Notes under the pieces: generated by a model
What the model was told of the DNA's origin: nothing
What the model saw: the letters and a program-made list of their open reading frames with translations, nothing else
Database searches by the model: none
Translations under genes and position numbers: made by a program
Assembly (NCBI GenBank): GCA_040388195.1
Contig: JAZKCF010000042.1
Coordinates: 2,885-66,884 of the forward strand
Length of the DNA stretch: 64,000 nucleotides
Direction: 5' to 3'
Source: Pseudomonadota bacterium
GTDB taxonomy: Bacteria > Pseudomonadota > Gammaproteobacteria > Burkholderiales > DATLHW01
Shown: piece after piece, positions 250 through 50,471 of the stretch
Numbering within the stretch: the first letter of the stretch is position 1
Layout: each line of letters starts with the position of its first letter

Positions 250-257
250 TCCGTTTC

Positions 258-1316: not shown

Positions 1317-1424
1317 TTATTCCTTTCGCGGATGGAGAAAATTTTTCAACATCATGCAATTGTTGTACCATCGCCGCGATTCAGCCCGTACGAGATACAG
1401 AAACCAATAGAATTAGAAATAGAA

Positions 1425-1520
1425 CTTACGCAAAACCGCCCCAGCCGCGTTACGGCTCCTTGCCGTACTAGTTTGGTACTGTCTGCGTCGCCGCGCCTTG
1501 CTGGGGCGGTTTTGCGTAAG
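1425..1520. repeat. TTACGCAAAA-ended palindromic intergenic element, copy R1 (96 bp)
   Basis: The termini cttacgcaaaaccgccccagc and gctggggcggttttgcgtaag are perfect inverted repeats. The copy is nearly identical to 52373-52467. It lies in the divergent PKS/TauE promoter gap. Confidence 0.85.
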
Positions 1521-1599
1521 TCCAAAGAAAGAAAGGTGCGATGCCTACGGTAAAAATTACCTTCAGATTACGCGGATTTTGCAAAAGAGAAGAAGCCGT

Positions 1600-2373: not shown

Positions 2374-2422
2374 CAAACGAGGCAGGAGCGGGCAACGCTT
2401 CGCTCCTGCAGGTCGGACCTTT

Positions 2423-3214: not shown

Positions 3215-3372
3215 GATGACCTCATATATTGATAGAACAAATTAACAATGCGGCAGTCTTTATTTCCGCCTTCTTTAATAGGCATTTTATTGCCGTAAGC
3301 GCTCGTTCAAAATCCGCCACATGAACGAAACGATACCAAGTACAATCCGCACCGATAAGGGAAACAAGAGCT

Positions 3373-4104: not shown

Positions 4105-4119
4105 ATTCGCGAATCCACT

Positions 4120-5037: not shown

Positions 5038-5066
5038 AGAAGATAAAAGGTAAAAATTTACTACTA

Positions 5067-5095
5067 CCGCCTTTGGGACGGTTTTGCGTAAATCC
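5067..5095. repeat. solo right-end fragment of the TTACGCAAAA element family (R5)
   Basis: ccgcctttgggacggttttgcgtaaatcc aligns by eye with the right end of R1 (cgccttgctggggcggttttgcgtaagtcc). Confidence 0.55.
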
Positions 5096-5161
5096 TAAAA
5101 AATTCACTTCGGTTATATAAATGACTATTCCAGGCAAAAATGATTCCCACGCGTACGATAT

Positions 5162-6616: not shown

Positions 6617-6718
6617 CGTATTGTCTCTCTGTGGAAAAATGGTGGCGATTAAGAATGACAATTTTTAGTAGCGCATTTTTTGTTAATCATTTTTCAAAAA
6701 ATCGATAGATATCGACAT

Positions 6719-9700
6719 TTATTGAATAGCACTGGACGCCTCGGAAAATGTCCCTTCCCCTATCAAAAGTGCTTGAAACTTCTCAGCAGGAACCGCAGAA
6801 CTATAGTAATACCCCTGTACCTCGTAACAACCCAATGAACGCAGTTTCTCTAATTGGGCCTTTGATTCGACGCCTTCCGCAATAACGCCAAGCCGCAAGC
6901 TGTGCGCGAGATTAATGATCGCTTGCGTAATGGCCTCACTATCTGGATTGGTCAGCATGTCTTCGATAAACGAGCTATCAACTTTGATTTTATCAATTGG
7001 AATATGCTTTAAATAACTGAGACTAGAGTAACCCGTGCCAAAATCATCAATGCTTATATGTACGCCTTTTTTTCGTAACCGCATTGCTAATTCAGCGACC
7101 AGCGATGCTCTGCGCATGATCGCGGTTTCAGTAATCTCTAGTTCCAAATAGCATGGATCGAGGTTCGACTCGCTCAATATACTCGTGACCAGATCAACGA
7201 ATTCCTTTTGTTGCAGCTGGATGGGGGAAACGTTTACCGATATCGGTATTGGCCGCAATCCTTGTGTTTGCCATTCGCGACATTGCTTGCATGCCTCGCG
7301 CATTACCCACTCGCCAAGTTTGCTAATCAATCCACGCTCTTCCGCTACTGGAACGAATTCGCTAGGCAGCAAAAAATCGCGGCTGTTTTGCCGCCAACGC
7401 AGCAAAGCTTCGGCACCAATGACAAGCCCGTCTCTCATATCAATCTGCGGTTGATACCAGACGCTTAATTGGCCAGCCTCCATGGCATGTCGTAGCTGCC
7501 GTTCAATAGTGGACGTTTTCCTAATGTAGTCATTAAGCTCCGAGGTAAAAAATTGATAGTTATTTCGACCACGATTTTTGGCTTGATAGAGCGCTGAATC
7601 AGCATGCTTTATTAAGGTATGACCTTCCGTTCCATCGGTTGGGTAGACGCTAATACCAATACTAATCGTGGTATGGATTTGATGTCCTTGCAGCAAAAAC
7701 GGTTTAGACGTACTTGCGAGTATTTTGTTGGCAACAGGAACGGCTTGTGCAGCTTTATCGATATCGGGTAATACCACCAAAAATTCATCGCCACCGATCC
7801 GGGCGACAGTATCCTCATCGCGAACGCAATTCAGCAGCCGCTCCCCTATTGCACGTAGCAGCATGTCGCCAATTTGATGGCCTAAGGAGTCATTAATATT
7901 TTTAAAGTTATCGAGATCCATAAATAGGACCGCCACTCTTTTTTTGCTCCGGGCGGCCATCTGAATAGCTTGAGATAGTCGATCATTCATCAACGCGCGA
8001 TTCGGCAGGGTCGTCACATTATCGTAGTAAGCCAGCGATTGAATCTGCTGCTCGGCATCTTTCCGATCGGTAATATCAGTGGCGACACCATCGATGCGTA
8101 GCAAGCGCCCTTCGTTATGTACCGTGAGACGTCCTCGGCTATGGAGCCAACGAATTTTTCCATCTCGTCGAATAATGCGAAATTCATTGTCGAATGACGG
8201 AGAGGCAAGCGTTAACGTGCGCAATGTATCTGCAACCCGTACCCGGTCATCGGGGCAGATTAAATCGAACCAAAAACCTGGATTCGCCAAAAATGATGAG
8301 GCTGGATAGCCGTAAATTTCCTCTACGGATCGATTTATATAGTTGAGCCGCGACAAATCCGGTGAAAATGACCAGACCACATCCAATATAGATTCCAATA
8401 TTCCATTCAATCGCGCACGGCTTTCCCTCAGCGCGCGTTCGGACTCCTTGCGCTCGGTAATATCTCGGCAAATAAATTGAATAAATTTCTTTCCCTCGAG
8501 AGCAATCGCGCGTGCGCTGACCTCGGCTGGAAAATTGGAACCGTCGCGCCGCTCGTGAGTACTTTCAAAAACAGCCACGCCTTGGGACCGCAACTTAGAC
8601 AATATGACTTCGATTGAATTTCTGGCGGCCTGCGGGGCTAACATGCCAATGGGTTGGCCAAGTAAATCGGAACGACTATATCCCAACGTCTGCAGCGCTT
8701 TATCATTCGCTTCTAGAATTCGTCCGTCCTCATCGGCCAAAATGATGATGTCATTGGCGTACTTGGATAGGTAGTCATATTGCCGCTGCAACAACCGTCT
8801 TTCTGTCAACGCTGCCAACGCTTGAAAGCGAAACTCGCTCTCCTTGTGTTTCCACCACAAAAACAAACCCATTCCCAGAAGGCACATTGCTGCTGCGCCC
8901 GTGCCGACCACGATCCACGCTAACCGGTTAACGTTCGCACGAACGGCGTTCTGGTTGATAGCACTCACTAAAAACCACGGAACATTCTCGATTTTCCTAG
9001 GCACTGCAATGGACAAACCACCTTGTGCATTTTGTAAAAAAAAATGACTTGTTGGCGATTTAGCAGCATCAATAAGCTGGTTCGCGCTTATGGGCAATAT
9101 ATTGGAATGACCTAAATAAGGGGACTGGTGGTCGCCTAGCGATACCGTAACTTCTTGCCCGCGTATTTCCACCAGCAACACTTCGGTAATCATGTCTGGA
9201 TCAGGCTGTGATTGAATAAAACGGTTGATATGCTTGCCGGCATCTACTCTTAATAACAGAACAGCTGTTATTTTTGATCTACGATCATTGATTCCTAAAA
9301 GAGGGGCAACAATCTCGATGGTCCGTTTTTCAGGGCTTATAGAGGCCATAGGACGGATAGCTGAAATCTGTAAAGCGCGAGTGGCCACAACACGTTTTAT
9401 GGTTTGTGCCGAAACAGGATCAATGGATACTGCAGAATCTTGCGTAGAAATCCTGACATTCCCGTCAGCATCGAGAATCGCTGCTTCGAAATAACCATGA
9501 GTTGCTTTCAGTGTTTTAAGTTGTTCGCGCAGTGCCAACTTTGTCTGGTCCTCAGGCGCGCCGCGCTTAATCCACGCTTTAGCGGCCTCGCCAAGAAACC
9601 GACCGCCGCTAAATATCGTTGCATCACCAATTCGCTCTCTTAACCACGCCGATATGGTCACGCTTCGAATGTCGGCGATATGGTTTAGCGTATTTAAAAT

Positions 9701-9841
9701 GTCGTGCTCTTCGTTTTCCACCAATCGGTTGTATATTTGATAGCCAACGGCGGTTGAAACAAGAAACAACAATACGAAGAGGCTAACAGCAAACCGCGAA
9801 TGTCGCGGATTCATGCCGATATTGCGAGCGATCGTTTGCAT
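6719..9841 (-). CDS. membrane sensor diguanylate cyclase/phosphodiesterase (periplasmic Cache-like domain, 2 PAS, GGDEF, EAL)
   Basis: Two transmembrane segments flank a periplasmic domain of about 280 aa. PAS-like blocks are present. The motifs RIGGDEFLVVL, EALLRW, DDFGTGYSSLSYL and QGYYY are intact. Confidence 0.9.
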   Translation of the reverse strand: MQTIARNIGMNPRHSRFAVSLFVLLFLVSTAVGYQIYNRLVENEEHDILNTLNHIADIRSVTISAWLRERIGDATIFSGGRFLGEAAKAWIKRGAPEDQTKLALREQLKTLKATHGYFEAAILDADGNVRISTQDSAVSIDPVSAQTIKRVVATRALQISAIRPMASISPEKRTIEIVAPLLGINDRRSKITAVLLLRVDAGKHINRFIQSQPDPDMITEVLLVEIRGQEVTVSLGDHQSPYLGHSNILPISANQLIDAAKSPTSHFFLQNAQGGLSIAVPRKIENVPWFLVSAINQNAVRANVNRLAWIVVGTGAAAMCLLGMGLFLWWKHKESEFRFQALAALTERRLLQRQYDYLSKYANDIIILADEDGRILEANDKALQTLGYSRSDLLGQPIGMLAPQAARNSIEVILSKLRSQGVAVFESTHERRDGSNFPAEVSARAIALEGKKFIQFICRDITERKESERALRESRARLNGILESILDVVWSFSPDLSRLNYINRSVEEIYGYPASSFLANPGFWFDLICPDDRVRVADTLRTLTLASPSFDNEFRIIRRDGKIRWLHSRGRLTVHNEGRLLRIDGVATDITDRKDAEQQIQSLAYYDNVTTLPNRALMNDRLSQAIQMAARSKKRVAVLFMDLDNFKNINDSLGHQIGDMLLRAIGERLLNCVRDEDTVARIGGDEFLVVLPDIDKAAQAVPVANKILASTSKPFLLQGHQIHTTISIGISVYPTDGTEGHTLIKHADSALYQAKNRGRNNYQFFTSELNDYIRKTSTIERQLRHAMEAGQLSVWYQPQIDMRDGLVIGAEALLRWRQNSRDFLLPSEFVPVAEERGLISKLGEWVMREACKQCREWQTQGLRPIPISVNVSPIQLQQKEFVDLVTSILSESNLDPCYLELEITETAIMRRASLVAELAMRLRKKGVHISIDDFGTGYSSLSYLKHIPIDKIKVDSSFIEDMLTNPDSEAITQAIINLAHSLRLGVIAEGVESKAQLEKLRSLGCYEVQGYYYSSAVPAEKFQALLIGEGTFSEASSAIQ

Positions 9842-26787: not shown

Positions 26788-28785
26788 ATGGCCATCTCAA
26801 CACCAGGTGTCGGTTCCGGGCTAGACGTTAACAGTATTGTTAGCAAACTAATGGATGTGGAGGCTCAACCGTTGTTGACTCTCCAGAAAAAAGAAATTTC
26901 CTATCAATCGAAGTTATCGGCTATCGGATCACTAACAGGTGCATTAAGTTCATTTCAAAGCAGCTTAAATGGCGTTAAAAACGTAAGCTCCTTTAATAGC
27001 TTAAATGCAATTATCAATGACAACACTGCTGCCAGCGTCACCGCGAGCAGCACTTCTGTTGCTGGCAGCTATGCATTGAACATCACACAGCTGGCGCAAG
27101 CACAAAAGGTGAATTCCACGATATTCACCAATGTCACGGATGTTGTTGGCACTGGCGTTCTTACCATTCAATTCGGGACTTACAATTCTGGTGGCAATAC
27201 CTTTACCCCCAATACAGCAAAAGCATCAAAAGATATAACCATTGGCAATTTTGTTAATACTCTTTCGGGCGTTCGGGATGCAATTAACGCTGCAGGCGCA
27301 GGGGTCAGCGCAACCATCGTCAATGACGGAACCGGCAATCGCTTAGTGATCTCGTCTCAAGACACAGGATTGGCCAATAGTCTAAAAATTACGGTGGCCG
27401 ATGACGATCTAGGCAATACCGATACCAGCGGTTTGTCCAAGCTCGCTTTTGATCCTACAGCTATCGCAGGCTCTGGAAAAAATCTTTCAGAAACACAGGT
27501 GGCGAAAGATGCCACGCTTACGGTCGATGGTTTGCCAATCACTAGCGCTAGCAATACGTTAACCAGTGCTATTCAGGGTGTAACGTTGAATTTATTAAAA
27601 ACCACAAGTTCGGCCGCGACTGTCACCGTAGCGTCAAATCCAAGCCAAATATTCAACTCACTGAGTACATTCGTTGCCGGCTACAACAATTTCAGCAAAA
27701 CACTCTCTTCGCTGACTGCTTATAACGCCAGTACGAAACAAGGTGGCCCATTGCTTGGTGATCCGACTACCCTTGCCATTGAAAGTCGAGTTCGAACCCT
27801 GCTTTCTGCATCTTCGACAGGATCGGCTGGCTTTACGACACTATCTAGCGTCGGCATTAGCTTTCAAAAAGACGGAACGCTAAGCATCGATGCCTCGAAA
27901 GCGGTCGCTGCAATTCAAAGTAATCCCGCGGCGGTAGGACAATTATTTGCAGCGGTAGGATCGAGTTCGGATAGCCTTGTCTCATATGTCGCCGGTACAT
28001 CAAGCACAGCACCAGGTACTTATGCAGTCAACGTAACGCAACTGGCAACCAAAGGAACGCTCGTCGGCAATGCAGTGGCCGGACTGACAATAACAGCGGG
28101 TGTCGATGATGCGGTAGCGCTTTCAATTGATGGAATTAGCGCGACTGTTACGTTATCCGCAGGGACCTATGCCACCGCCGATGATCTTGCCACTCAGCTG
28201 CAGACCAAAATTAATGCCACTTCCACATTCAGCAACAAAGGCATAAAAGTGGCAGTCACTCAAACCGGTGGCGCGCTTACTATCACGTCTGATAGTTACG
28301 GCTCAAATTCCGCGCTCACTGCTACCGCAGGAGCCGCCGCCACCAACCTTTTTGGCGCAGCGCCAGTTCGTACAGATGGCTTAGACGTGGCCGGAACAAT
28401 TGGTGGAACAGCTGCCACCGGTAACGGGCAAAACCTTACCAGTACCTCCGGCGACAGTTTGGGGTTAGTAACGGCTGTTCTTGGTGGATCCCTCGGCGCT
28501 CGCGGCTCGATAACTTATACGACGGGTTTTGCCTATCAATTGGATCAATTGATAGGCCAATATACTTCTCCAACTGGATTAGTTACGGCAAGAACCACTG
28601 GGATAAACACCACTATTAAATCAATGCAACAACGAGAAAGTGATTGGAGTACTCGGCTTTCCGCGATAGAAAAACGATATCGCGCGCAGTTCAGCGCGCT
28701 CGATACAACGATCGCAAAAATGAATAGCTTGAGTACCTATTTGCAGCAGCAAATAAATAGCTTTGCCAGTAACAATAATTCTTAA
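26788..28785 (+). CDS. fliD: flagellar filament cap protein FliD
   Basis: The N-terminus ISTPGVGSGLDVNSIVSKLMDVEAQPL, the C-terminal coiled coil (RYRAQFSALDTTIAKMNS) and the gene position fit FliD. Confidence 0.95.
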   Translation: MAISTPGVGSGLDVNSIVSKLMDVEAQPLLTLQKKEISYQSKLSAIGSLTGALSSFQSSLNGVKNVSSFNSLNAIINDNTAASVTASSTSVAGSYALNITQLAQAQKVNSTIFTNVTDVVGTGVLTIQFGTYNSGGNTFTPNTAKASKDITIGNFVNTLSGVRDAINAAGAGVSATIVNDGTGNRLVISSQDTGLANSLKITVADDDLGNTDTSGLSKLAFDPTAIAGSGKNLSETQVAKDATLTVDGLPITSASNTLTSAIQGVTLNLLKTTSSAATVTVASNPSQIFNSLSTFVAGYNNFSKTLSSLTAYNASTKQGGPLLGDPTTLAIESRVRTLLSASSTGSAGFTTLSSVGISFQKDGTLSIDASKAVAAIQSNPAAVGQLFAAVGSSSDSLVSYVAGTSSTAPGTYAVNVTQLATKGTLVGNAVAGLTITAGVDDAVALSIDGISATVTLSAGTYATADDLATQLQTKINATSTFSNKGIKVAVTQTGGALTITSDSYGSNSALTATAGAAATNLFGAAPVRTDGLDVAGTIGGTAATGNGQNLTSTSGDSLGLVTAVLGGSLGARGSITYTTGFAYQLDQLIGQYTSPTGLVTARTTGINTTIKSMQQRESDWSTRLSAIEKRYRAQFSALDTTIAKMNSLSTYLQQQINSFASNNNS

Positions 28786-28847
28786 AATAAAAATTGGGTT
28801 TTTAACCTTAAGAAGGCGTTTTTTTTGATAAAAGGGACTTTATTATC

Positions 28848-29297
28848 ATGAACCCGGGTCAGAAACAGGCAATGGCTTATGCAAACATCGGGCTTGAGAC
28901 CGGTGTGGCTGCCGCAAGTCCGCATCGGCTTATTCTCATGCTATACGACGGCGCTCTTATCGCACTTGTCGATGCGCAAAAACATCTTGAAGCCAAGAAT
29001 ATTCCGGGTAAAGGACAGGCGATTTCTAAAGCGCTGCAAATCATTGACGAAGGCTTAAAAGCAAGTCTCGATGAAACAAGCGGTGGGGAGATTGCTGTTC
29101 ATTTAAAGGATCTCTACGATTACATGACCAGGCGGCTTTTGCTAGCCAGCCTGCGCAATCAAGTTGAGCCTGTCATCGAAGTACGCAATCTTCTCGGTCA
29201 ATTAAGAGAAGCTTGGGAGGCCATTGGCAAGCAAGTGGATGCTCAAGCGGCATCCGGGACGCCACAAACTAATGCTGACACAAAAGTAAGGACCTAG
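28848..29297 (+). CDS. fliS: flagellin-specific chaperone FliS
   Basis: AYANIGLETGVAAASPHRLILMLYDGAL and LYDYMTRRLLLASL are typical FliS blocks. Confidence 0.92.
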   Translation: MNPGQKQAMAYANIGLETGVAAASPHRLILMLYDGALIALVDAQKHLEAKNIPGKGQAISKALQIIDEGLKASLDETSGGEIAVHLKDLYDYMTRRLLLASLRNQVEPVIEVRNLLGQLREAWEAIGKQVDAQAASGTPQTNADTKVRT

Positions 29298-29298
29298 G

Positions 29299-29643
29299 AT
29301 GGAAAGAGAACACCACATTATCTCCTGTTACGAATCTATGTCACTCGCGACCACCGACATGCTGGCGGCTGCCCGTCGCAACGATTGGGATGGCGTGATT
29401 GCAGCTGAACGCAATTGCTCACAAATCGTTGAGAATCTTAAACGCTTAGGCGACCTTGTTCCAACCGACCCGCAGCTTCGTCAGCGAAAGTTGGAAATTA
29501 TTATTAAAGTCCTCGCCGATGATGCGGAAATTCGGAACCTCACGCAGCCATGGTTGCAGCAATTAGAAGTTTTTCTGAAAAATGCCGGCACAACCAGAAA
29601 ACTTAGCCATGCTTACGGCGCGGTTTCGCCCGCTAATGAGTAA
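29299..29643 (+). CDS. fliT: probable flagellar chaperone FliT
   Basis: 114-aa helical protein directly after fliS, with a 1-nt gap. Composition and position are FliT-like, but sequence conservation in this family is weak. Confidence 0.55.
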   Translation: MEREHHIISCYESMSLATTDMLAAARRNDWDGVIAAERNCSQIVENLKRLGDLVPTDPQLRQRKLEIIIKVLADDAEIRNLTQPWLQQLEVFLKNAGTTRKLSHAYGAVSPANE

Positions 29644-29659: not shown

Positions 29660-29869
29660 ATGTTAAGCGAGCATATTCAATATAACGCAGCGGCAAACTC
29701 CGACGATCGGACCGTGCCCACTGTTGATCGAGTACGCCCGCCTACCGCAGTGACACCACGTACCGAGGAGGAACAGTCTCGGCAACGGCAACATAAAAAT
29801 ACGCAAAAACCAAAAACCGACAAGAAGCGTCCTCCTGACTCACCTAACCAAATAGACGAATATGTTTGA
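29660..29869 (+). CDS. hypothetical small charged protein (69 aa), coding status uncertain
   Basis: It is one of two mirror-image candidate ORFs in the 271-bp gap between fliT and the fliK-like gene. It is Pro/Arg/Lys/Gln-rich and predicted disordered. It has no good Shine-Dalgarno sequence, and the antisense ORF has equal length. Confidence 0.3.
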   Translation: MLSEHIQYNAAANSDDRTVPTVDRVRPPTAVTPRTEEEQSRQRQHKNTQKPKTDKKRPPDSPNQIDEYV

Positions 29870-29914: not shown

Positions 29915-30955
29915 ATGCCGGTAGATGTTTCATCTTTAGCTAGTCTTTTCCCTTCCCTCCCGCGATTGCTGGGAGGCAGTACAGCGTCTGCAAATAGCAC
30001 ATCAACGACATCAACTTTAGCTGCGGGTCAGATAGTAGCGGCAACTGTTGTGCAAAACCTCGATGCAAACCGGCTTATCGCGACAATAGGCGGGCAAAAC
30101 TACGATTTGCGTCTCCCTATTGCCACCACCATTGGCGAAACACTGCAATTGGAAGTTGTTTCAACTGAACCGGAGCCCTCCTTCCGCCTGCTTAATACGA
30201 CGCCAGGCTCACAAGGCAAAGAACAAAACGTAACGTTCAGCGACACCGCGCGGTTAATGCAATCAGCCAGCGCCACGTTGTCCAATAGTAAAGAGACATT
30301 GCCGGCGAGATTGCGTGCCGATCCAGTTCCGTTAGCGCAGGAGTCCCCTGCAGCGCCAGCCAAACTGGCCGACAATTTAAAATCTGCGATTAGTCAAAGC
30401 GGTTTCTTCTATGAATCGCATCAAGCGCAGTGGGTTAAAGGCAATTATTCATTGGAAGCCTTACGCCAAGAACCGCAGGCTTCGCCGCAGCAAGCAGCGT
30501 CTGCAAACGTGCAGCAAAACCTTGAACAACCAAATCGGCCATTGTCGGGAACCATAACTGGCAAAGATCAACAGCTGTTGCTATCAGCCAATCAAACCGC
30601 GCCTACTTTGGTCGAGCATCAAATCGCAGCTTTAGGTGGCGCACCAATCGAATGGTATGGTCAAGCTTGGCCCGGGCAACCGATACATGTATCGATTCAA
30701 CGCGACAAAGATCCTGGCGCATTTGATGACCCTTCGCAAAAAGGATGGGAAAGCCATCTCACTTTGGATTTACCTAATCTAGGTACCGTCGACGCGACCA
30801 TGCATCTCTCTGCAACCGGCGTGCGAATCACCATTAACGCCGCAGAAGAAACATCGACCGAAGCTTTGCGTACTGCCACCAGAGATTTGGTCGATACACT
30901 GGAAGGCATAGGAATCAAAGTGCTTGGCATAGGATTGGGTCATGGCAGAGGATAA
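29915..30955 (+). CDS. FliK-like protein (second hook-length-control paralogue, Flg_hook-like C-terminal domain)
   Basis: The C-terminal WESHLTLDLPNLGTVDATMHLSATGVRITINAAEETSTEALRTATRDLVDTLEGIGIKV parallels the FliK block at 40740-41834 (AEIHLNPENLGPVDVHIKID...ITFTALNPDTRNALENAMPQLRNMLTESGISV). Confidence 0.7.
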   Translation: MPVDVSSLASLFPSLPRLLGGSTASANSTSTTSTLAAGQIVAATVVQNLDANRLIATIGGQNYDLRLPIATTIGETLQLEVVSTEPEPSFRLLNTTPGSQGKEQNVTFSDTARLMQSASATLSNSKETLPARLRADPVPLAQESPAAPAKLADNLKSAISQSGFFYESHQAQWVKGNYSLEALRQEPQASPQQAASANVQQNLEQPNRPLSGTITGKDQQLLLSANQTAPTLVEHQIAALGGAPIEWYGQAWPGQPIHVSIQRDKDPGAFDDPSQKGWESHLTLDLPNLGTVDATMHLSATGVRITINAAEETSTEALRTATRDLVDTLEGIGIKVLGIGLGHGRG

Positions 30956-31253
30956 ACCAGCAGACAAGCAATTTGTGGCCGCAGCTCTGGCCTATCGAGC
31001 CGGCGCGAGCGCGCCGACAATTACTGCCAAAGGCCGCGGCAAAGTTGCCGAGGAAATTATTCGCCGTGCGAAGGAATCCGGCGTATTCGTACATGAATCG
31101 AAAGAAATGGTGGCTTTGCTGATGGAACTCGACCTCGATCAGCAGATTCCACCCACGCTTTACCGCGTGGTCGCCGAATTGCTAGCGTGGATTTACCGTA
31201 TTGAAAACCGCCTGCCTGCAACTTTAACGGCGCCGGTGGGACCTAAGAAATGA
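30942..31253 (+). CDS. stand-alone FlhB C-terminal-domain-like protein (EscU/YscU/HrcU switch family fragment type)
   Basis: AAALAYRAGASAPTITAKGRGKVAEEIIRRAKESGVFVHESKEMVALLMELDLDQQIPPTLYRVVAELLAWIY aligns with the FlhB region just after the NPTH autocleavage site. There is no transmembrane domain and no NPTH. It overlaps the upstream gene by 14 nt. Confidence 0.85.
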   Translation: MAEDKPADKQFVAAALAYRAGASAPTITAKGRGKVAEEIIRRAKESGVFVHESKEMVALLMELDLDQQIPPTLYRVVAELLAWIYRIENRLPATLTAPVGPKK

Positions 31254-31333: not shown

Positions 31334-32092
31334 GTGGAACCTACCGTTAATCAATCAGGACCGCTGCTAGAACTGGAAGAAGACGACCGCTATCAGGTCT
31401 ATTCTCACGCTGAAATCGTCGCCATCCTACGCATGGTCCAAGAAGCAGACGCACCAATTACCATCACCTTTAATCAAGGCAAAGATTCCATATTCACAAT
31501 AATTTTGGAAATCAACCTTGAATCCGACGAACTGATTTTGGATTACGGACCGGACGAACTTTATAACCGACGTTTAATGACGGCCGAAACGGTAACGATC
31601 ATTACCGAACACAACCAGGTTAAAATTTTGTTTCGCTCCCAGCGCCCGGAAACTACTATCTATGACGAAAGCCCAGCGTTTCGGATCAAGATACCAAAAA
31701 CACTGATTCGCCTACAACGGCGTGAATTCTTTCGTATGTCAATGCCCATGGGAGACGCAATTAAATCCCACCTGTCTCTCAGCACCGGGAAAAGTTCTGC
31801 AAAGATCGAAGTAGAAGTTTTGGACATCAGTTGCGGCGGCGTAGCCTTGGCGGCTGACGATCAATTGCCTGGAGTAGAAGTTGGAAAAATTTATAAAGGC
31901 CTGCAGATTGAATTGCCCGAGATTGGTACCATCACGGCAGATGTGGAAATACGCAATATTTCTCAGCAGCCGATTCGCAATTCAGTCGTCAAACGACTAG
32001 GTTGCCAATTCGTCAATCTTCCAAACGCCATAGCCAGTATGGTGCAGCGGTATATCACCAAGCTAGAAGTTTCTCGCAAGCGACGATCCTAA
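31334..32092 (+). CDS. ycgR: YcgR-type flagellar brake protein (PilZN + PilZ c-di-GMP receptor)
   Basis: RxxxR motif (LQRREFFRM) and D/NxSxxG motif (LDISCGG), with an N-terminal YcgR-like domain. GTG start. The symbol is given by domain architecture and context only. Confidence 0.8.
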   Translation: MEPTVNQSGPLLELEEDDRYQVYSHAEIVAILRMVQEADAPITITFNQGKDSIFTIILEINLESDELILDYGPDELYNRRLMTAETVTIITEHNQVKILFRSQRPETTIYDESPAFRIKIPKTLIRLQRREFFRMSMPMGDAIKSHLSLSTGKSSAKIEVEVLDISCGGVALAADDQLPGVEVGKIYKGLQIELPEIGTITADVEIRNISQQPIRNSVVKRLGCQFVNLPNAIASMVQRYITKLEVSRKRRS

Positions 32093-32114: not shown

Positions 32115-32230
32115 ACTTACGCAAAATTGTCCCAGCAAGGGTTGCGCAGGAGTTTCGAGCAGCATGCTGCGAGCCTGCGAAACGGTTTGCGCATGCAAGC
32201 GCAACGCCGCTGCGACAGTTTTGCGTAAAT
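32115..32230. repeat. TTACGCAAAA-ended palindromic element, long variant (R3, 116 bp)
   Basis: The ends are acttacgcaaaa...ttttgcgtaaat, with internal palindromes gcagcatgctgc and ttgcgc-N6-gcgcaa. It is collinear with R4 at 50958-51130. It fills the ycgR-like / TPR gene gap and touches the downstream ATG. Confidence 0.8.
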
Positions 32231-34757
32231 GCTAATGAAAAAAATTGGGCGTAACGATCCTTGCCCATGTGGCAGCGGCAAGAAAAATAAGCAGTGCTGC
32301 GGACCGCGCGAAAACTTCCAATCGGTAAAACTCCGCTCCGTAAATGTATCCCCTCCCGTGCCTCTTCAAGATGCGTTGGCACATCATCAAGCCGGGCGTT
32401 TGCCGGAAGCGGAAGCCATCTATCGGCAGATACTTCAAATGCAACCAAACGATGCGGACGCACATCATTTGTTAGGTGTAATTGCCATTCAAGTAGGGAA
32501 AAGTGAAGTCGCCATCGAACTCATTGGCAAGGCGCTCAAATTGCGGCCTGATTTTCCCGAGGCATACATTAATTTGGGAAACGCGCTTAGTGATCAAAAC
32601 AGGTTGGACGAAGCAATTGCGTGTTATCGCCAAGCAATCAAATTCAAATCCGATGCTGCCGAAGCGCACAATAATTTAGGAATGGCGCTTAGAGATCAAG
32701 GCAAATTAAGCGACGCAATTGCCTGTTATCGACAAGCAATCACGTTTAAATCAAATAATCCTGAGGCGTATGTCAATCTTGGAAATGCGCTTAAGGAACA
32801 AGGCAAAATAGATGAGGCAATTGCTTGTTATCACCAAGCAATCCAGTGCAAGCCCGATTTTGCCGATGCGCATAATAGCTTAGGAATCGCACTTAAGAAT
32901 CAAGGCAAGATAAACGAGGCGATTATTTGCTATCGACAAATACTCACGTTTCAGCCTGATAACGCCGCAGCACACAATAATTTAGGAGCAGCGTACAAGG
33001 ACCAAGGTAAATTGGAAGAAGCGATTGGCTGTTACGGTGTAGCGATCAAATACAAATCCGATTTTGCCGAGGCTTACATTAATCTGGGAAATGCACTTAA
33101 GGTCCAAGGCAAATTAGACCAGGCAGTTGCATGCTTGAAACATTCGCTAGCGATCAAAGAAACCATCGAAGCAAAAATCGATTTTGCTGCCTGTATAAAA
33201 AACGTTTCTTTCACGCAAGACGACCCTGAGAATCGACAGCTCATCATTAGAGCTCTATCTGAACCGTGGGGCCGGCCGGCCGATCTCGCGGGCACAGGCA
33301 TAAATATTCTCAAATTGAATCAAAACATGAGCGAATGCACAGAGCGTGCAGCGCAAACATGGCCCACCAGATTATCAGCGCAAGAACTATACGGATCTTC
33401 CGGATTTTCTTCCGTTGCAGATGATCGATTGCTGCAGTGCTTGTTGGAGAACGTTCCGATTTGCGATGTAGAACTAGAGCGTTTTTTAACCATGGCAAGA
33501 CTGGCAATGCTGAATGCCACCATAGGCCCTGCTGTTTCCGTTGAACCAAACGAACAAATTTTTTATTGCGCTTTGGCTCGACAATGTTTCATCAACGAAT
33601 ATATTTTTTCCTATACCGACGAAGAGTTCGATCAAGCACAATCGTTACGAGAACGCGTCGTCACTGCAATAGCAGCTAAATCATCTGTTCCTGCCGCATG
33701 GTTGATAAGCGTCGCCGCCTACTTCCCTTTGTTCTCTTTACCCACCATTGAAGCGCTATTCGATCAATCCTGGCCTGAAGCGGTTAATGCCTTGCTGGTG
33801 CAACAAATACGAGAACCGCGGGAAGAACAGCAGTATCGCGCTCAAATTCCCAGGCTTACACCCATTGATGATGAGGTTTCCTTATTAGTTCAGCAACAAT
33901 ATGAGGAGAATCCGTACCCTAGGTGGATTAAATGTCAGCAACGCGATAATCACCTGTCTCTGGAAGCCTATTTACGGCAACAGTTCCCGTTTGCGCCGAT
34001 TAAACCATTAGAGAAAAACGATGCGATCGATATTCTGATTGCTGGCTGCGGAACTGGCTGGCAATCAATTCAAACGGCGCAGCAATTTCGCCAGTCCCGA
34101 GTATTGGCCATTGATTTAAGTGTAACCAGTCTTTGCTACGCAAAAAGAAAGACGCACGAGCTTGGCTTGGAAAACATTGAATACGCGTGTGCCGACATCA
34201 CGAAGCTTGAATCCAGCGGGCGAACGTTTGATGCCATTGAGTCCATTGGTGTGCTGCACCATCTCGCGGACCCGAAAGCCGGTTGGCAAATGTTACTTTC
34301 ATTACTACGCCCTAATGGATTTATGCGCTTGGGTTTTTACAGCGAATATGCACGTCGCAATATTATTGCAGCACGGCAATTCATTGACCAACAAGGATAT
34401 GCAGGAAACGCAGCTGACATACGGCGTTGTCGCCAAGATTTAATATCCATGAAAGATAACGAGCAATTTAAAAAGCTACTGTCGTTCAATGATTTTTACG
34501 GAACTAGTGAATGTCGCGATCTGTTATTCCATGTTCACGAACATCATTTCACGTTACCGCAAATTAAGAAAATTTTAGAGGAATTTGATTTGGAATTTAT
34601 CGGGTTTTTTCTTGAAGCTCATGTAACCCAAAAATATGAAGTTCGCTTCGCGGATGACACATCAAAGACAAACCTGGATTACTGGAATATTTTTGAAACC
34701 GAAAATCCAGATATTTTTTCCGGCATGTATCAGTTCGTTGTACAAAAACGAGGATAA
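32229..34757 (+). CDS. SEC-C motif / TPR repeat / class I SAM-dependent methyltransferase fusion protein
   Basis: N-terminal GRNDPCPCGSGKKNKQCCG (SEC-C zinc motif), about nine 34-aa TPRs (AIACYRQAI.FK....AEA..NLG.AL..QGK), and C-terminal ILIAGCGTGWQSI (motif I). The start may be ATG 32235. Confidence 0.85.
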   Translation: MLMKKIGRNDPCPCGSGKKNKQCCGPRENFQSVKLRSVNVSPPVPLQDALAHHQAGRLPEAEAIYRQILQMQPNDADAHHLLGVIAIQVGKSEVAIELIGKALKLRPDFPEAYINLGNALSDQNRLDEAIACYRQAIKFKSDAAEAHNNLGMALRDQGKLSDAIACYRQAITFKSNNPEAYVNLGNALKEQGKIDEAIACYHQAIQCKPDFADAHNSLGIALKNQGKINEAIICYRQILTFQPDNAAAHNNLGAAYKDQGKLEEAIGCYGVAIKYKSDFAEAYINLGNALKVQGKLDQAVACLKHSLAIKETIEAKIDFAACIKNVSFTQDDPENRQLIIRALSEPWGRPADLAGTGINILKLNQNMSECTERAAQTWPTRLSAQELYGSSGFSSVADDRLLQCLLENVPICDVELERFLTMARLAMLNATIGPAVSVEPNEQIFYCALARQCFINEYIFSYTDEEFDQAQSLRERVVTAIAAKSSVPAAWLISVAAYFPLFSLPTIEALFDQSWPEAVNALLVQQIREPREEQQYRAQIPRLTPIDDEVSLLVQQQYEENPYPRWIKCQQRDNHLSLEAYLRQQFPFAPIKPLEKNDAIDILIAGCGTGWQSIQTAQQFRQSRVLAIDLSVTSLCYAKRKTHELGLENIEYACADITKLESSGRTFDAIESIGVLHHLADPKAGWQMLLSLLRPNGFMRLGFYSEYARRNIIAARQFIDQQGYAGNAADIRRCRQDLISMKDNEQFKKLLSFNDFYGTSECRDLLFHVHEHHFTLPQIKKILEEFDLEFIGFFLEAHVTQKYEVRFADDTSKTNLDYWNIFETENPDIFSGMYQFVVQKRG
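32373..33190 (+). repeat. tandem 102-bp coding repeats (TPR units) inside the fusion gene
   Basis: Consecutive 34-codon units are recognisably similar at the DNA level, e.g. gcaattgcgtgttatcgccaagcaatc / gcaattgcctgttatcgacaagcaatc / gcaattgcttgttatcaccaagcaatc. Confidence 0.8.
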
Positions 34758-40739: not shown

Positions 40740-41834
40740 ATGCCTGACTTGACCATTTCCGCACTCCCCGCCCCTATATCCGCCTCTGGACAATCTAACG
40801 CTGCCGCAAATACAGCGGGTAACTCCAGCGACAACGCGAGTGACTTTCAAGCAATACTATCAGGCAAAATGGCTCCAGCAGAAAAACCGGTTGGGCCACA
40901 AACAGGCGCTAAATCCTCCAACTCTACCGGTGCCTCAACAACAACCGCCAAAGACGCGGAGAGCAAACCAACAGATGTTTCCACGCAAAGTACGGATAAC
41001 AATGCCGCCGCCGTCGCTGCGGCCGCTGCAGCCCTGGTGCCGCCAATAGCGATCCTCCCAATCAATGTCGTTACCCCTCCGCCTGTAGCCGTCACACCAG
41101 CATCCGATACCCTTTCGGCACAAGGAAATATAAATGCAGTCGCTACCACCAAAGTGGATGGAGCAGCGACCAAATCAGTAGCAGTCGACAAACTATCAAC
41201 GGAAATTCAAACACAACTCCAGGCAAACGGACAGATTCGAACCAAAGCCGAAGAAACCGCGATAGAAACAGCCTTTGCCGCAGCTTTGGACTCGAAGCAA
41301 TCCCAAATTCAGAATGCGCAAAACGAAACAATGCGTCTTGTAACGATGACTACGCCTGAACCCCTTACCTCACCCAGCGCGCCCGTCCAAACAGCTACGC
41401 CCACATTCAGCATCCGCAATACAGTAGGTAGCTCGGCCTGGACAAATGAGCTAGGTAACAGAATGACTTATATGGTCGGGGAAAAAATGCAATCCGCGGA
41501 AATACATTTGAATCCCGAGAATCTCGGGCCAGTCGATGTGCACATTAAAATCGATGCAGATAAACAAACCAGCATCACCTTCACAGCACTTAATCCCGAT
41601 ACTCGCAACGCACTAGAAAACGCGATGCCTCAATTGCGCAACATGCTTACCGAAAGTGGCATTAGCGTCTCCAATTTTTCCGTCAGTGCCGATGCCTTTG
41701 CCGGTGCCTCTCAACAGGGCATGGGCGGACAACGTCAACAGGGCGGCAATACATCAACAGGCGAAAACGTCGAGCCAGTGACCACCGTAACGCGAACTCT
41801 CGGCCCGAATGGGCTAGTCGATACATTCGCATAA
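40740..41834 (+). CDS. fliK: flagellar hook-length control protein FliK
   Basis: Low-complexity Ala/Pro/Thr-rich N-terminal ruler plus the conserved Flg_hook C-terminal domain (SAEIHLNPENLGPVDVHIKIDADKQTSITF). Confidence 0.85.
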   Translation: MPDLTISALPAPISASGQSNAAANTAGNSSDNASDFQAILSGKMAPAEKPVGPQTGAKSSNSTGASTTTAKDAESKPTDVSTQSTDNNAAAVAAAAAALVPPIAILPINVVTPPPVAVTPASDTLSAQGNINAVATTKVDGAATKSVAVDKLSTEIQTQLQANGQIRTKAEETAIETAFAAALDSKQSQIQNAQNETMRLVTMTTPEPLTSPSAPVQTATPTFSIRNTVGSSAWTNELGNRMTYMVGEKMQSAEIHLNPENLGPVDVHIKIDADKQTSITFTALNPDTRNALENAMPQLRNMLTESGISVSNFSVSADAFAGASQQGMGGQRQQGGNTSTGENVEPVTTVTRTLGPNGLVDTFA

Positions 41835-46339: not shown

Positions 46340-48193
46340 ATGGGCGAAGCAATGCGGCCTTCTGTAACTGGAAAAAACCAAAAATTAACACTTACACAAG
46401 TTGTTGCCTGGTTGGTTGCCGATGAAATACTGCTACCGGAAAAAGCGGCAGAAATTCGGCCGACCGCACCGCAAGCAGATCCCGCCGAAAATCATCCTCT
46501 AACCATCATCGCCGCTCGCGGTTTGTTCAATGCAAAGCCGCCCCATAAAGCGTTAACGCTAGAAGCACTAACGACCTGGCTTGCCAATCGTGTACAGATG
46601 CCATATCACCGCATCGATCCTCTAAAGATAGATGTGACAGCGGTTACCGCCGTGATGTCTTACAACTTCGCAAAACATCACTCGATTTTGTGTATTGGGG
46701 CGCCGCTGGAAAAAGTCATCATTGCCACTGCCGAACCGTATCTTAACGGCTGGGAGGAAAATCTTGCACCGCTGCTAAAGCGACCAATCGAGCGCGTGAT
46801 CGCTAATCCGCTAGATATCAGCCGTTATCTTGTAGAGTTTTACGCACTGTCACGTTCGGTAAATCAGGCCAACGGGCGAGCGCAGACTGGTCATGGAAAT
46901 GAGATTACTAACCTCGAACAAATGGTGGAATTGGGCCGGCGAGGTAAGCTTGATGCCAATGACCAGCACATTGTTAATATCGTGGATTGGTTGTTGCAAT
47001 ACGCTTTCGATCAACGGGCAAGTGATATTCATCTCGAGCCGCGGCGTGATGAAGGCAGCGTACGTTTTCGTATCGATGGTGTTTTACATTTGGTTTATCA
47101 AATGCCGATGCCGGTATTGGCTGCGGTAACAAGCCGCGTCAAGATTCTCGGACGTATGGATCTGGCGGAAAAACGCCGCCCACTTGATGGCCGGCTCAAG
47201 ACTAAAACACCGGATGGAAAAGAAATTGAATTGCGCTTATCCACCATGCCGACTGCCTTCGGCGAAAAATTGGTAATGCGCGTTTTCGATCCGGATGTAC
47301 TGGTTCGCAATTTTCGCGATCTCGGCTTTAATAACGAAGAACTCGCGGCATGGCACGAAATGATCAAGCAGCCTACGGGCATTGTTCTTGTGACAGGTCC
47401 AACCGGCTCTGGAAAAACAACCACGCTTTATTCCACGCTCAAATTATTGGCTACTCCCGGCGTTAACGTATGTACGATCGAAGACCCGATAGAAATGGTG
47501 GAGCCGGCATTTAATCAGACACAGATGCAACACAACATCGGTCTCGATTTCGCATCTGGCGTACGCGCCTTATTACGGCAGGACCCTGACATCATCATGG
47601 TCGGCGAAATTCGCGATCTCGAAACTGCTGAAATGGCCGTGCAAGCGGCGCTTACCGGTCACCTGGTCTTATCAACACTGCATACCAACGATGCTCCCAG
47701 CGCTATCACGCGCCTGCTTGACCTCGGTGTGCCGCCATACCTCATGAATGCGACCTTGCTCGGAGTACTCGCGCAGCGACTGATTCGCACACTCTGCCCT
47801 CATTGCAAGCAACCTGGTCCTACTAATATGCAGGCCTGGCAACAAATCACGCTTCCTTGGCAGTCACCGCCACCGGCAAAGACTTACCATCCTCAAGGGT
47901 GTCTGGAATGCCGTAATACCGGATACATGGGGCGAATTGGCATTTATGAACTTCTGACATACACACAAGGTTTGAAAGAGCTTGTACATGCCAATGCCGA
48001 GTTGCATCCCTTAAGAGCAAAAGCCCGCAAAGAAGGAATGCGTTCGTTACGATTGAGTGGAGCGGAGAAAGTACACAACGGAATAACAACAATCGAAGAG
48101 GTATTGAAAGTTGCGCCTGCCGATGACGTGAAGAAAAACGCATCACGCGCCGAACAAGTTTTAAATTCTGCAAATACGATCAAAAATGAATGA
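46340..48193 (+). CDS. GspE/PulE/PilB-family secretion ATPase (orphan; no partner genes in the window)
   Basis: T2SSE_N-like N-domain, Walker A VTGPTGSGKTTTLYS, Asp/His boxes (IMVGEIRD, GHLVLSTLHTND) and a tetracysteine CPHC...CLECRNTGYMGRIGIYE. Confidence 0.9.
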   Translation: MGEAMRPSVTGKNQKLTLTQVVAWLVADEILLPEKAAEIRPTAPQADPAENHPLTIIAARGLFNAKPPHKALTLEALTTWLANRVQMPYHRIDPLKIDVTAVTAVMSYNFAKHHSILCIGAPLEKVIIATAEPYLNGWEENLAPLLKRPIERVIANPLDISRYLVEFYALSRSVNQANGRAQTGHGNEITNLEQMVELGRRGKLDANDQHIVNIVDWLLQYAFDQRASDIHLEPRRDEGSVRFRIDGVLHLVYQMPMPVLAAVTSRVKILGRMDLAEKRRPLDGRLKTKTPDGKEIELRLSTMPTAFGEKLVMRVFDPDVLVRNFRDLGFNNEELAAWHEMIKQPTGIVLVTGPTGSGKTTTLYSTLKLLATPGVNVCTIEDPIEMVEPAFNQTQMQHNIGLDFASGVRALLRQDPDIIMVGEIRDLETAEMAVQAALTGHLVLSTLHTNDAPSAITRLLDLGVPPYLMNATLLGVLAQRLIRTLCPHCKQPGPTNMQAWQQITLPWQSPPPAKTYHPQGCLECRNTGYMGRIGIYELLTYTQGLKELVHANAELHPLRAKARKEGMRSLRLSGAEKVHNGITTIEEVLKVAPADDVKKNASRAEQVLNSANTIKNE

Positions 48194-48268: not shown

Positions 48269-49561
48269 TTAACTCACTTCTTTGTCGATCTTACCGGCCC
48301 AAAGGAAAGACTCCACCTGCATCTGTAATAGATTTTCAAGCGATAGGCCGGGCGCAGCGGCGAGCAACTCATCAACTTCGATTTCACTATCTACTTCTAA
48401 TTTTTCTGTCAGCCGCAATAATTGCCCAAGCTTTCCAGTACCGTGAAGCAATGCTTCTTTTACTTCGTCAGCGACTAAAATTTCGTCGAAAATTTCTTCT
48501 CTTGGCATTTCCAAGAGCGCATCGACCAACGATAAAATACCAGTCATAAATGCGGTATCCTGATATTCCCGGGAAGAATGCGGATCGATTTTAGCCAACG
48601 ACTCCATGAATTTTCCGCGGCTTGCAGCCATTTCTAACAACGGGTTCTTTGTTGTTCCGTTGTCACGAGCAGTATAGAGAAGTAACTGCATCCAAATTTG
48701 CAACTGGCGGCGACCGAGTAACACGATAGCATGTCGCAATGATGTTATTCGCTCCCGTAAACCAACGGCTGCCGAATTAACCATGCGGATCAAATTATAG
48801 GAAAGCGTGGGGTGGTATTTAAATTCCGAACTCAACATGCCGATATCTGCATCACTCAAAATCAAGGACAGCAATCGCAGCAAATGCGCTTTCGCAGGCG
48901 CTTTTTGTTGCTTTTTGGTGAGTAGTTGCGGCCGTGCGAAATGGTATCCTTGAAAGAGATCGAAGCCTAACTGGCATGCCTCATCGAACTGCTCTTTTGT
49001 TTCCACCTTTTCGGCTACCAGCCGCAATCCGCGACGGCGTAAACCAGCGACAGTTTCCGATAAAAGAACTGGATCAATTTCTAGCAAATCAACTTTAACA
49101 ATATCGACCTCACTTAGAAAAAGCTCTTGCTTATTCACTTCACCTGCGTAGTCATCGAGCGCAAAGCAATACCCCTTGCTTTTGAGTTCCCTTAAACGCT
49201 CAATGATCTCGGCGCTTGGCTCAACTGATTCTAGTATCTCTAAAACGACTTGCTGAGGAGGTAATGCTTCAACTAAATCCGATAACAAGAAATGAGTATC
49301 GACGTTAATATATCCTTGTGCATCACCAAGCACTGCTGTAAATCCCATACCGCTAAACGCATTTTGTACGACAGTGGTAGTTGCGCGCATGTGCTCTGTG
49401 ATATCGGCATAATCGGTTCCATATGAGCGAAACAATAACTCGTATGCAACTAATCTTTTTTGCTGATCCAAGATAGGTTGTCTCGCTAAAAAAATAACCT
49501 CCAAGCCTTCCTTGATCGGTGGCTGAAGAGATTGCGAGTTGAATTCGCCTTTAACGTCCAT
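48269..49561 (-). CDS. EAL + HDOD domain signalling protein (COG3434/YuxH type)
   Basis: The N-terminal EAL domain carries the ELL variant (VAYELLFRS), plus LEILES, ALDDYAG, VKVDL and FQGYHFARP. The C-terminal half is HDOD-like (LLSLILSDADIGMLSSEFKYHPTLSYNLIRMVNSA). Confidence 0.85.
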   Translation of the reverse strand: MDVKGEFNSQSLQPPIKEGLEVIFLARQPILDQQKRLVAYELLFRSYGTDYADITEHMRATTTVVQNAFSGMGFTAVLGDAQGYINVDTHFLLSDLVEALPPQQVVLEILESVEPSAEIIERLRELKSKGYCFALDDYAGEVNKQELFLSEVDIVKVDLLEIDPVLLSETVAGLRRRGLRLVAEKVETKEQFDEACQLGFDLFQGYHFARPQLLTKKQQKAPAKAHLLRLLSLILSDADIGMLSSEFKYHPTLSYNLIRMVNSAAVGLRERITSLRHAIVLLGRRQLQIWMQLLLYTARDNGTTKNPLLEMAASRGKFMESLAKIDPHSSREYQDTAFMTGILSLVDALLEMPREEIFDEILVADEVKEALLHGTGKLGQLLRLTEKLEVDSEIEVDELLAAAPGLSLENLLQMQVESFLWAGKIDKEVS

Positions 49562-50123: not shown

Positions 50124-50471
50124 CTACATGCCGGGCGGACGAGCGCCAGCCGACCGGACAAAAGCTTGTATAGCTTGGGAATTACTGTCATCTAATTGTG
50201 CAAACTGCAATCCTATTCTGAAACCATCCGACGTTAATACACTATGAACAACTAATGCGGGAATGGACAGTTTTTGATACTTCCCCCGAATTAGCAATTC
50301 AAATTTCGCAATCACTTCAATACCATCCGGAAGCGCCTGCGGCGACATTACGCAAAGTCCACCGATACTCACGTCTTTACTTCTCGTATCCACCGAAACG
50401 GTTTCTTTTGTCGTCAACGTTACCCGCACATGCAATGCTGCGCGCGGAAATACTCTCCGTTCTGCTCCCAC
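50124..50471 (-). CDS. single-domain PilZ c-di-GMP receptor protein
   Basis: RxxxR (ERRVFPRA) and DxSxxG (KDVSIGG) motifs; 115 aa; GTG start. Confidence 0.8.
   Translation of the reverse strand: MGAERRVFPRAALHVRVTLTTKETVSVDTRSKDVSIGGLCVMSPQALPDGIEVIAKFELLIRGKYQKLSIPALVVHSVLTSDGFRIGLQFAQLDDSNSQAIQAFVRSAGARPPGM

Follow-up and report, generated by a model that had tools for sequence, protein, structure and literature searches.

The flagellar gene cluster of a Burkholderiales bacterium (GenBank assembly GCA_040388195.1) raises the question of why a gene set that already has a fliK in its usual place should carry a second gene with a FliK-type C-terminal domain, followed directly by a short gene encoding what resembles a detached piece of the export protein FlhB. 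The cluster lies on contig JAZKCF010000042.1, of which we analyzed 64,000 nucleotides (positions 2,885–66,884 of the forward strand), referred to below as the window. The pair itself is not new: the copy in the window is the already known, conserved flagellar gene pair fliK2–flhX. What is new here is a survey of its locus order and overlap, of the evolutionary rate and pocket conservation of FlhX, and of the anatomy of FliK2, which appears not to be that of a ruler. Our reading, held with moderate confidence, is that the two proteins form a late-expressed module acting in trans on the site of the export gate that holds the autocleaved C-terminal fragment of FlhB (FlhB-CC, also called CCD), and not a second hook ruler.

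A preliminary description of this DNA had reported a 346-aa open reading frame (ORF) with a FliK-type C-terminal domain, overlapping by 14 nt a 103-aa ORF, and both are found where it had placed them (Table 1). The domain is recognized as Pfam Flg_hook (PF02120) at residues 272–344 of FliK2, with 46.7 bits against a cutoff of 29.8, and the Pfam E-values for the two proteins of the pair, 1e-12 and 1e-15, rule out matches by chance. The shared nucleotides are 30942–30955, and a Shine-Dalgarno-like AGGA sits inside fliK2, 7 nt before the ATG of flhX. The canonical fliK that had been noted elsewhere in the window is equally genuine: it lies between fliJ and fliL, and its product matches Flg_hook with 85 bits at residues 240–318, followed by a 46-residue tail, and the NF007514 FliK model with 89.6 bits. 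The window holds a single flagellar gene set.

By its sequence, FlhX is a free-standing paralogue of the polypeptide that FlhB releases by autocleavage at its NPTH motif. The match of FlhX to Pfam Bac_export_2 is confined to profile positions 261–335 of 335 (E 4e-15), and a profile of the FlhX family matches the post-cleavage fragment of Salmonella FlhB (PDB 3b0z, chain B) from chain residue 4 onward (E 5e-16), FlhB residues 269–272 (NPTH) being aligned to positions of the family profile that are neither NPTH nor conserved. Among NCBIfam families the best match is TIGR00789 (flhB_rel), with 84.6 bits, below its curated cutoff of 117.35; that to TIGR00328 reaches 58.3 bits, below the equivalog cutoff of 349. 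FlhX is soluble and has neither a membrane domain, that is, the four-helix transmembrane N-terminal domain of FlhB/SctU, nor an NPTH motif, which is absent from all six frames of the window. The earlier portrayal of the 103-aa protein, as FlhB from just after NPTH without membrane domain and without NPTH, is thus borne out by the Bac_export_2 and 3b0z matches. Full-length flhB was not found in the window, where the sole FlhB-like stretch, 31008–31211, matches FlhB residues 287–355. Stand-alone homologues of FlhX are numerous (n = 314, 85–134 aa), most of them 57–87% identical.

The conservation of FlhX extends to the parts of FlhB-CC that make contacts. In an alignment of 25 FlhX sequences (A1), 31 columns are invariant. 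The first strand after the cleavage point (AVALAY) is kept, with A13, A15, L16, and Y18 invariant or nearly so; in FlhB/SctU structures, this first post-cleavage strand pairs with the remaining part of FlhB (FlhB-CN). The residues equivalent to the early-substrate pocket of Salmonella FlhB (Table 1) are also retained: besides the first two of them, A1 shows no variation at A78 and at least 90% conservation at L81, and 63 of 68 loci carry the AP...A..L pattern. In FlhB, this pocket, composed of A286, P287, A341, and L344, docks early substrates of the rod and hook type (PMC9307174, PMC8983047). The rate of evolution of FlhX was compared with that of FlhB at three loci that also bear full-length flhB. 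Between Sulfuritalea and Rugosibacter the identities are 75% for FlhX, 71–72% for FlhB-CC, 76–77% for whole FlhB, and 59–61% for FliK2; since the identity of FlhX matches that of FlhB between genomes, purifying selection acts on FlhX as strongly as on a core export component. FlhX and FlhB-CC of one genome are 51–52% identical in the Rhodocyclales loci, and FlhX of the window is 35–37% identical to FlhB-CC of related genomes. Folded alone, FlhX yields a low-confidence model, with a predicted local distance difference test score (pLDDT) of 63, which fits an incomplete fold that would lack the strand normally given by FlhB-CN and would need a partner. At this pLDDT the monomer model was too poor to serve as a fold-search query and was dropped; the sequence-profile match to the PDB was used instead.

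FliK2, to judge from its alignments, is a FliK paralogue reduced to the T3S4 (substrate-specificity-switch) domain, without the C-terminal "ejector" tail. The gene product is 100% identical to an NCBI protein from a metagenome-assembled genome (MAG) annotated as FliK (P0001), and FlhX, too, has a 100% identical counterpart in an NCBI MAG. It has no NCBIfam match, so none to the FliK equivalog model, no match to the PDB by sequence, and no significant BLASTP alignment with the canonical FliK of the window. Its homologues (n = 117) are all betaproteobacterial or from MAGs, with 24–49% identity in the aligned set; the family has three conserved blocks (alignment A2), and its length ranges from 299 to 537 aa across related loci, the rest of the locus remaining unchanged.

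The AlphaFold2 model of FliK2 (mean pLDDT 72) comprises four regions. The N-terminal β-domain contains the conserved block G38...L67 P68...G74 (A2), and its Foldseek matches are weak and OB-fold-like (3h43, IF1). Residues 97–134 are disordered in the model, forming a poorly ordered central region of ~40 residues with pLDDT <50. They are followed by helices at residues 148–240, which contain the SG(L/F)FYESH motif. S162, G163, F165, Y166, E167, S168, H169, and W173 are invariant across 50 sequences; the motif reads SGMFYEAH in Cupriavidus and SGLFLEAR in Pseudomonas aeruginosa FliK2, and it was not found in the canonical FliK sequence of the window. For the T3S4 domain, the top Foldseek match in the PDB is the SS domain of the injectisome ruler PscP (5cuk), with a probability of 1.0 and a root-mean-square deviation of 1.9 Å over 68 columns. 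FliK2 ends two residues past the Pfam domain (344 of 346) and three past the modelled fold, whereas canonical FliK runs 46 further, and nothing is conserved after the last strand in the FliK2 C-termini (A2). In a 2026 model from Salmonella, FlhB-CCD is an inhibitory lock: it keeps the gate in early mode until the hook is complete, when it is lost, and the terminal residues of FliK are proposed to destabilize and eject this cleaved domain (PMC13344023). Because FliK2 lacks the tail whose terminal residues eject CCD in that model, it looks like a binder without ejector. The model structure further suggests that FliK2 is not of the ruler type, its N-terminal part being predicted to contain a folded β-domain where a ruler would be low in complexity.

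Table 1. Positions in the window of the fliK2–flhX pair, its predicted functional elements, and the flagellar features discussed with it
Feature	Coordinates	Strand	Remarks
fliK2	29915..30955	+	346-aa FliK paralogue, predicted not to be ruler-type; Pfam Flg_hook (PF02120) and ORF
flhX	30942..31253	+	103 aa; separately encoded homologue of the C-terminal fragment left by FlhB autocleavage (FlhB-CC, also called CCD)
fliK2/flhX junction	30931..30955	+	AGGA 30931-30934, flhX ATG 30942, fliK2 TAA 30953-30955
FliK2 N-terminal β-domain, residues 38-93	30026..30193	+	AlphaFold2 block-mean pLDDT 80-94; five β-strands
FliK2 SG(L/F)FYESHxxxW motif, residues 162-173	30398..30433	+	Invariant positions in 50 sequences
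FliK2 T3S4 (substrate-specificity-switch) domain, residues 245-343	30647..30943	+	AlphaFold2 block-mean pLDDT 79-95
FlhX A24-P25	31011..31016	+	Equivalent to Salmonella FlhB A286-P287, early-substrate pocket; invariant in A1
FlhX A78-E79-L80-L81	31173..31184	+	Equivalent to FlhB A341...L344, early-substrate pocket
σ28 consensus TAAA-N15-GCCGATAA	24747..24773	+	Perfect, TAAATATTGTCCCGCTCGCGCCGATAA; ~95 nt upstream of fliC
fliD-fliS-fliT	26788..29643	+	Adjoin fliK2 on its upstream side; FliS and FliT by Pfam, FliD by phmmer synteny and gene calls of the closest relative (L084)
ycgR-like flagellar brake gene	31334..32092	+	Directly downstream of flhX; Pfam PilZN 92 bits, PilZ 38 bits
Canonical fliK	40740..41834	+	364 aa; neighbours FliJ and FliL; Flg_hook and NF007514

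The pairing of the two genes is strongly conserved. A scan of GTDB species genomes with the FlhX alignment gave at least 575 matching loci, and an exhaustive profile search returned 2,702 cluster representatives at E ≤ 1e-10, a number that rose to 7,460 at a threshold of E ≤ 1e-3; full-length FlhB/SctU proteins may contribute to each of these counts. Among the 150 best representatives, 149 are stand-alone (71–235 aa). The best 80 loci of the scan were fetched (L001–L080) and their ORFs annotated by phmmer. In 79 of them fliK2 lies directly upstream of flhX, in most of the 80 flhX is followed by ycgR, and most of the full-length loci share the order fliC-flaG-fliD-fliS-fliT-fliK2-flhX-ycgR, often with fliE in opposite orientation; among them are Oxalobacteraceae, Nitrosomonadaceae, Rhodocyclales, Methyloversatilis, Thiobacillus, and one Methylobacter. 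Conservation of the pair beside fliS and fliT in related genomes, which had been put forward for checking, is therefore the rule among these loci. The exception is L012 (Massilia sp. H-1, CP087969.1), a frameshift-ridden assembly in which fliC, fliD, fliS, and fliK2/flhX are split into short ORFs over positions 1–7300; its 509-aa chimeric ORF across flhX looks like the product of assembly indel errors, not a true fusion.

The overlap is kept along with the order. The stop of fliK2 overlaps the start of flhX in 70 of 75 scorable loci, and in four of the others the two genes are separated by 10 nt or less. An overlap of 14 nt is the commonest (27 loci), followed by 11 nt (13 loci), 8 nt (11 loci), and 4 nt (8 loci). 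The closest relative, from a JGI soil metagenome (L084), has the same arrangement with an 11-nt overlap. In P. aeruginosa, a 492-aa "FliK" overlaps by 4 nt a 111-aa "EscU/YscU/HrcU switch protein", and in Cupriavidus metallidurans a 447-aa ORF of the FliK2 family (171 bits against the FliK2 profile) overlaps a 91-aa FlhX, again by 4 nt. Such a strongly conserved pairing speaks for a joint function of the two proteins.

Fused forms of the two proteins were also sought. A search with the concatenated proteins returned FliK2-type proteins only, from a candidate list dominated by FliK2 words. The exhaustive profile search gave one singleton that resembles a fusion: a 410-aa protein from a 3,356-bp contig of an ENA metagenome (P0383), with a FliK2-like part (SGLFYESH and LPxLG-type motifs) and a FlhX-like part in which the otherwise invariant APKVVAKGRG has degenerated to AATASTNGAS. 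Whether it arose by a rare natural fusion or by faulty assembly, it is too weak to serve as Rosetta-stone evidence. A programmed frameshift yielding a FliK2–FlhX fusion was considered and rejected, as the overlaps of 1, 4, 8, 11, 14, 17, 20, and 23 nt represent both alternative frames; no slippery site was seen in the fliK2/flhX junction sequence.

The position of the pair suggests when it is expressed. From the σ28 consensus onward, the genes read fliC, flaG, fliD, fliS, fliT, a 69-codon ORF, fliK2, and flhX, then the ycgR-like PilZ gene, a methyltransferase gene with tetratricopeptide repeats (TPR), fliE on the opposite strand, fliFGHIJ, fliK, fliLMNOP, and fliR; the flg genes lie on the minus strand further along the window. 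The exact TAAA-N15-GCCGATAA occurs once in the window, with 0.04 occurrences expected by chance, and no terminator-like site was found on the plus strand from fliC to ycgR. In Pseudomonas putida, transcription of the fliK2–flhX operon depends on FliA (σ28) (bioRxiv 10.1101/2021.08.29.457346, PMC5026340).

The literature already holds several pieces of this system. FlhX was defined by Pallen et al. 2005, as related in a citing paper (bioRxiv 10.1101/2021.08.29.457346). Comparative studies list it among flagellar export components and mention an "flhX-fliK" pair for Nitratiruptor. In P. putida, PP_4328 has been named fliK2 and PP_4329 is the flhX orthologue, the function of fliK2 being described as "still uncharacterized" (bioRxiv 10.1101/2021.08.29.457346, PMC5026340). 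For Helicobacter pylori, FlhX (HP1575) is reported to act as a "spare part" when FlhB-CC is deleted, according to the accounts given of this work (Wand 2006 and Smith 2009, per bioRxiv 10.1101/2021.08.29.457346, PMC3040844). The preliminary description had stated that the small protein has no established function; this statement has to be qualified by the spare-part role so reported in H. pylori and by the naming of the pair in P. putida.

How might such a module work? FlhX could act only in trans, because it has no membrane domain, no CN part, and no cleavage loop: it would either sit in the FlhB-CC site of the export gate or bind the ligands of that site in the cytoplasm. We envisage that FliK2 and FlhX are made together from their coupled, overlapping cistrons, and that FliK2 binds FlhX via its T3S4 domain, possibly also via the SGLFYESH motif, holding or delivering it. 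The complex would then act on the FlhB-CC site once σ28 is active, by refilling, holding, or buffering it, and occupancy of this site would set the early or late specificity state of the export gates. As the pair would be expressed with the late (σ28/FliA) genes, its most likely role is to tune or restore occupancy of the FlhB-CC site after hook completion; probably, the module does not measure hook length. Any specific version of this scheme deserves much less confidence than the general one. In one such version, which we consider quite unlikely, FlhX would serve physiologically as a reloadable copy of the FlhB-CCD "lock", and FliK2•FlhX would deliver it to the vacated FlhB-CN site or keep it off. 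Here, FliK would eject the native CCD at hook completion, and the tail-less FliK2 would bind CCD without ejecting it.

Several points weigh against this trans-acting module. The binding of FliK2 to FlhX is something that we infer, and so are the site and time of its action. Natural FliK2–FlhX fusions are essentially absent. The stop/start overlap is not specific evidence of a FliK2–FlhX complex: other such overlaps occur in the same flagellar cluster (fliF/G, fliH/I, fliN/O, and fliO/P, by ORF coordinates), and since they are so common across it, the overlap alone is not special. The overlap does fit the translational coupling proposed in the preliminary description. No σ28 promoter was found in the window directly upstream of fliK2. 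Late expression of the pair in this organism is suggested by its position and by Pseudomonas; the P. putida regulation data are carried over by analogy, the similarity of FliK2 being significant in the C-terminal domain alone. Lastly, the low pLDDT of FlhX may simply reflect a shallow alignment of 25 similar sequences.

The evidence can be arranged differently. FlhX held by FliK2 might never dock at the gate and might act instead as a cytoplasmic decoy or sink, binding the gate-recognition motifs of rod and hook proteins, or FliK, once σ28 is active; early-type export would be damped, or premature switching would be prevented at newly forming basal bodies. We regard this as possible, if unlikely. 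It agrees with a fully conserved early-substrate pocket in a soluble protein, with the late expression context, and with the fact that the pocket and the T3S4 domain are the two known partners of early substrates and FliK (PMC8983047, PMC13344023). A pure decoy would not, however, need the post-cleavage strand, whose A13, A15, L16, and Y18 are as strictly conserved as the pocket, and the H. pylori protein is reported, in the accounts cited above, to support export without FlhB-CC, so that it works at the gate.

Very unlikely, in our view, is a second ruler or switch, in which FliK2 would be a secreted, length-measuring protein with FlhX as its private target, serving a second length (e.g., of the rod or filament) or a second flagellar system. 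Against it, the window has one flagellar gene set only, with a canonical fliK in the usual place, and although the T3S4 fold of FliK2 is genuine, its central region of ~40 residues is poorly ordered (pLDDT <50), and both partner domains are encoded together, FliK2 lacks the tail whose terminal residues are needed for switching in Salmonella. Its well-folded N-terminal β-domain is unlike the low-complexity ruler of canonical FliK, and its length, 299 to 537 aa in related loci, changes without any accompanying change in the rest of the locus. FlhX, having no membrane anchor, cannot itself be a gate component, and late expression also argues against a ruler. Thus, of the decoy, timer, and second switch that the preliminary description had offered, a second ruler or timer is the least likely, because FliK2 has a folded N-terminal domain and no canonical C-terminal tail. 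There remains the reading of the pair as functionless, decaying duplicates of fliK and of the 3′ end of flhB. The Pseudomonas sources consulted report neither phenotype nor function for fliK2, as decay would have it, but FlhX is 57–87% identical across orders and evolves as slowly as FlhB, the reading frames are intact, synteny is kept in at least 79 loci and in Pseudomonas, and both proteins have many invariant columns. The conservation data leave this reading effectively refuted.

The pair is among the few widely conserved flagellar gene pairs without an assigned function. A separately encoded copy of CCD together with a tail-less FliK switch domain, apparently expressed late, offers a handle on the resetting or buffering of the switch, on occupancy of the FlhB-CC site after hook completion, and on how Fluke-less bacteria guard against premature switching. 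If the reloadable-lock version were true, the supposedly irreversible specificity switch would be resettable or tunable in many Fluke-less bacteria. The 2026 CCD-ejection model makes the role of a separately encoded CCD directly testable, and targets for mutation are at hand: the pocket and docking strand of FlhX, and the missing tail, N-terminal β-domain, and SGLFYESH motif of FliK2.

Some features of the surrounding DNA deserve mention in their own right. The 69-codon ORF between fliT and fliK2 (29660–29869, +) matches nothing in Pfam or NCBIfam, and the 80 genome loci contain no homologue of it. A 67-codon ORF occupies the corresponding position in the closest relative (L084, 9782–9982): start and stop align, and the two are 52% identical over 59 aa, with a conserved SDDR..PTV..VRPPT.VTPR and a C-terminal QIDEY; the source pipeline made no gene call there. 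This ORF is a candidate lineage-specific small protein of the flagellar locus. Conserved bases of the fliT–fliK2 spacer had been considered as a promoter, an assignment that was rejected as they belong to this small ORF.

Between ycgR and fliE, a gene for an 842-aa protein is inserted (32229–34757, +); in most related loci, fliE comes straight after ycgR. The protein has a Cys-rich start, CPCGSGKKNKQCC, which we take to resemble the C-terminal zinc-binding motif of SecA, then many TPR repeats and a class I S-adenosylmethionine-dependent methyltransferase domain, and similar proteins occur in L031 and L051. Genes related to cyclic di-GMP are dense around the flagellar cluster (46340–48193, +; 48269–49561, −; 50124–50471, −; 6719–9841, −): a T2SSE-type ATPase with an MshEN domain comes after fliR, where flhB might be expected, and others encode an EAL-HDOD protein, a PilZ protein standing alone, and a protein of the PAS-GGDEF-EAL type. 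A 612-aa ORF (14286–16124, +) without Pfam match at E ≤ 1e-4 lies in a region of lower G+C content (0.427 for 14001–16000).

Among known systems, the pair has a parallel in Bacillus, where YlqH (TIGR00789) is a 93-aa homologue of FlhB-CC and the start of its gene likewise shares 4 nt with the stop of a larger gene upstream. Unlike the pair of the window, the ylqG/ylqH locus lies outside a flagellar cluster, and the upstream protein has 567 aa. The notion that YlqG is a distant FliK2 proved unsupported: it has no Flg_hook match, an hhalign E of 0.16, and no hmmsearch match to the FliK2 profile. On visual inspection, YlqG is similar to the FliK2 β-domain in its N-terminal part and to the end of the T3S4 domain in its C-terminal part, with nothing significant. 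In Bacillus velezensis (L083, NZ_CP083716.1, 2235–4216), the 567-aa gene is annotated as "glycosyl transferase", without a glycosyltransferase Pfam match. Records labelled as plasmids (807 kb in Bacillus, 847 kb in P. aeruginosa) carry chromosomal housekeeping genes.

As in P. putida KT2440 (PP_4328–PP_4329) and P. aeruginosa, a protein with a FliK C-terminal domain is encoded upstream of, overlapping with, and co-oriented with a homologue of FlhB-CC of ~100 aa. The pair likewise stands in or near the flagellar cluster, and the upstream protein has Flg_hook near its C-terminus with a short tail, and a mid-protein motif of the QSGLF(Y/L)E type. The two arrangements differ in that the window pair lies between fliDST and ycgR, not at the cluster edge with its own FliA promoter as in P. 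putida, and in the overlap, 14 nt as against 4 nt in the Pseudomonas pair. Between FliK2 of the window and that of P. aeruginosa, only the T3S4 domain aligns significantly (30 bits; hhalign probability 81%); collinearity extends to the N-terminal and motif regions, which score 4.6 bits only.

Taken singly, the partners also have known counterparts. FlhX is like HP1575 of H. pylori and flhX of Campylobacter (Cj0848c) in being a stand-alone homologue of FlhB-CC without membrane domain, and like Salmonella FlhB-CC (3B0Z, chain B) in its collinearity with it, which begins at the residue following NPTH and runs through the last helix; in the helix region, FlhX has VFVHESKELVALLM and FlhB-CC has VPLLEAPPLARALY. 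It is unlike FlhB-CC in coming from a separate gene, not from autocleavage, and in having no CN partner in cis. FliK2 shares with the FliK/SctP rulers, as seen in the SS domain of PscP (PDB 5CUK), the C-terminal α/β T3S4 fold. It departs from them in that the C-terminal tail is missing, the N-terminal region contains a predicted folded β-domain, and the motif SGLFYESH..W is invariant, and from canonical fliK in its place, the slot between fliJ and fliL being occupied by the gene at 40740–41834.

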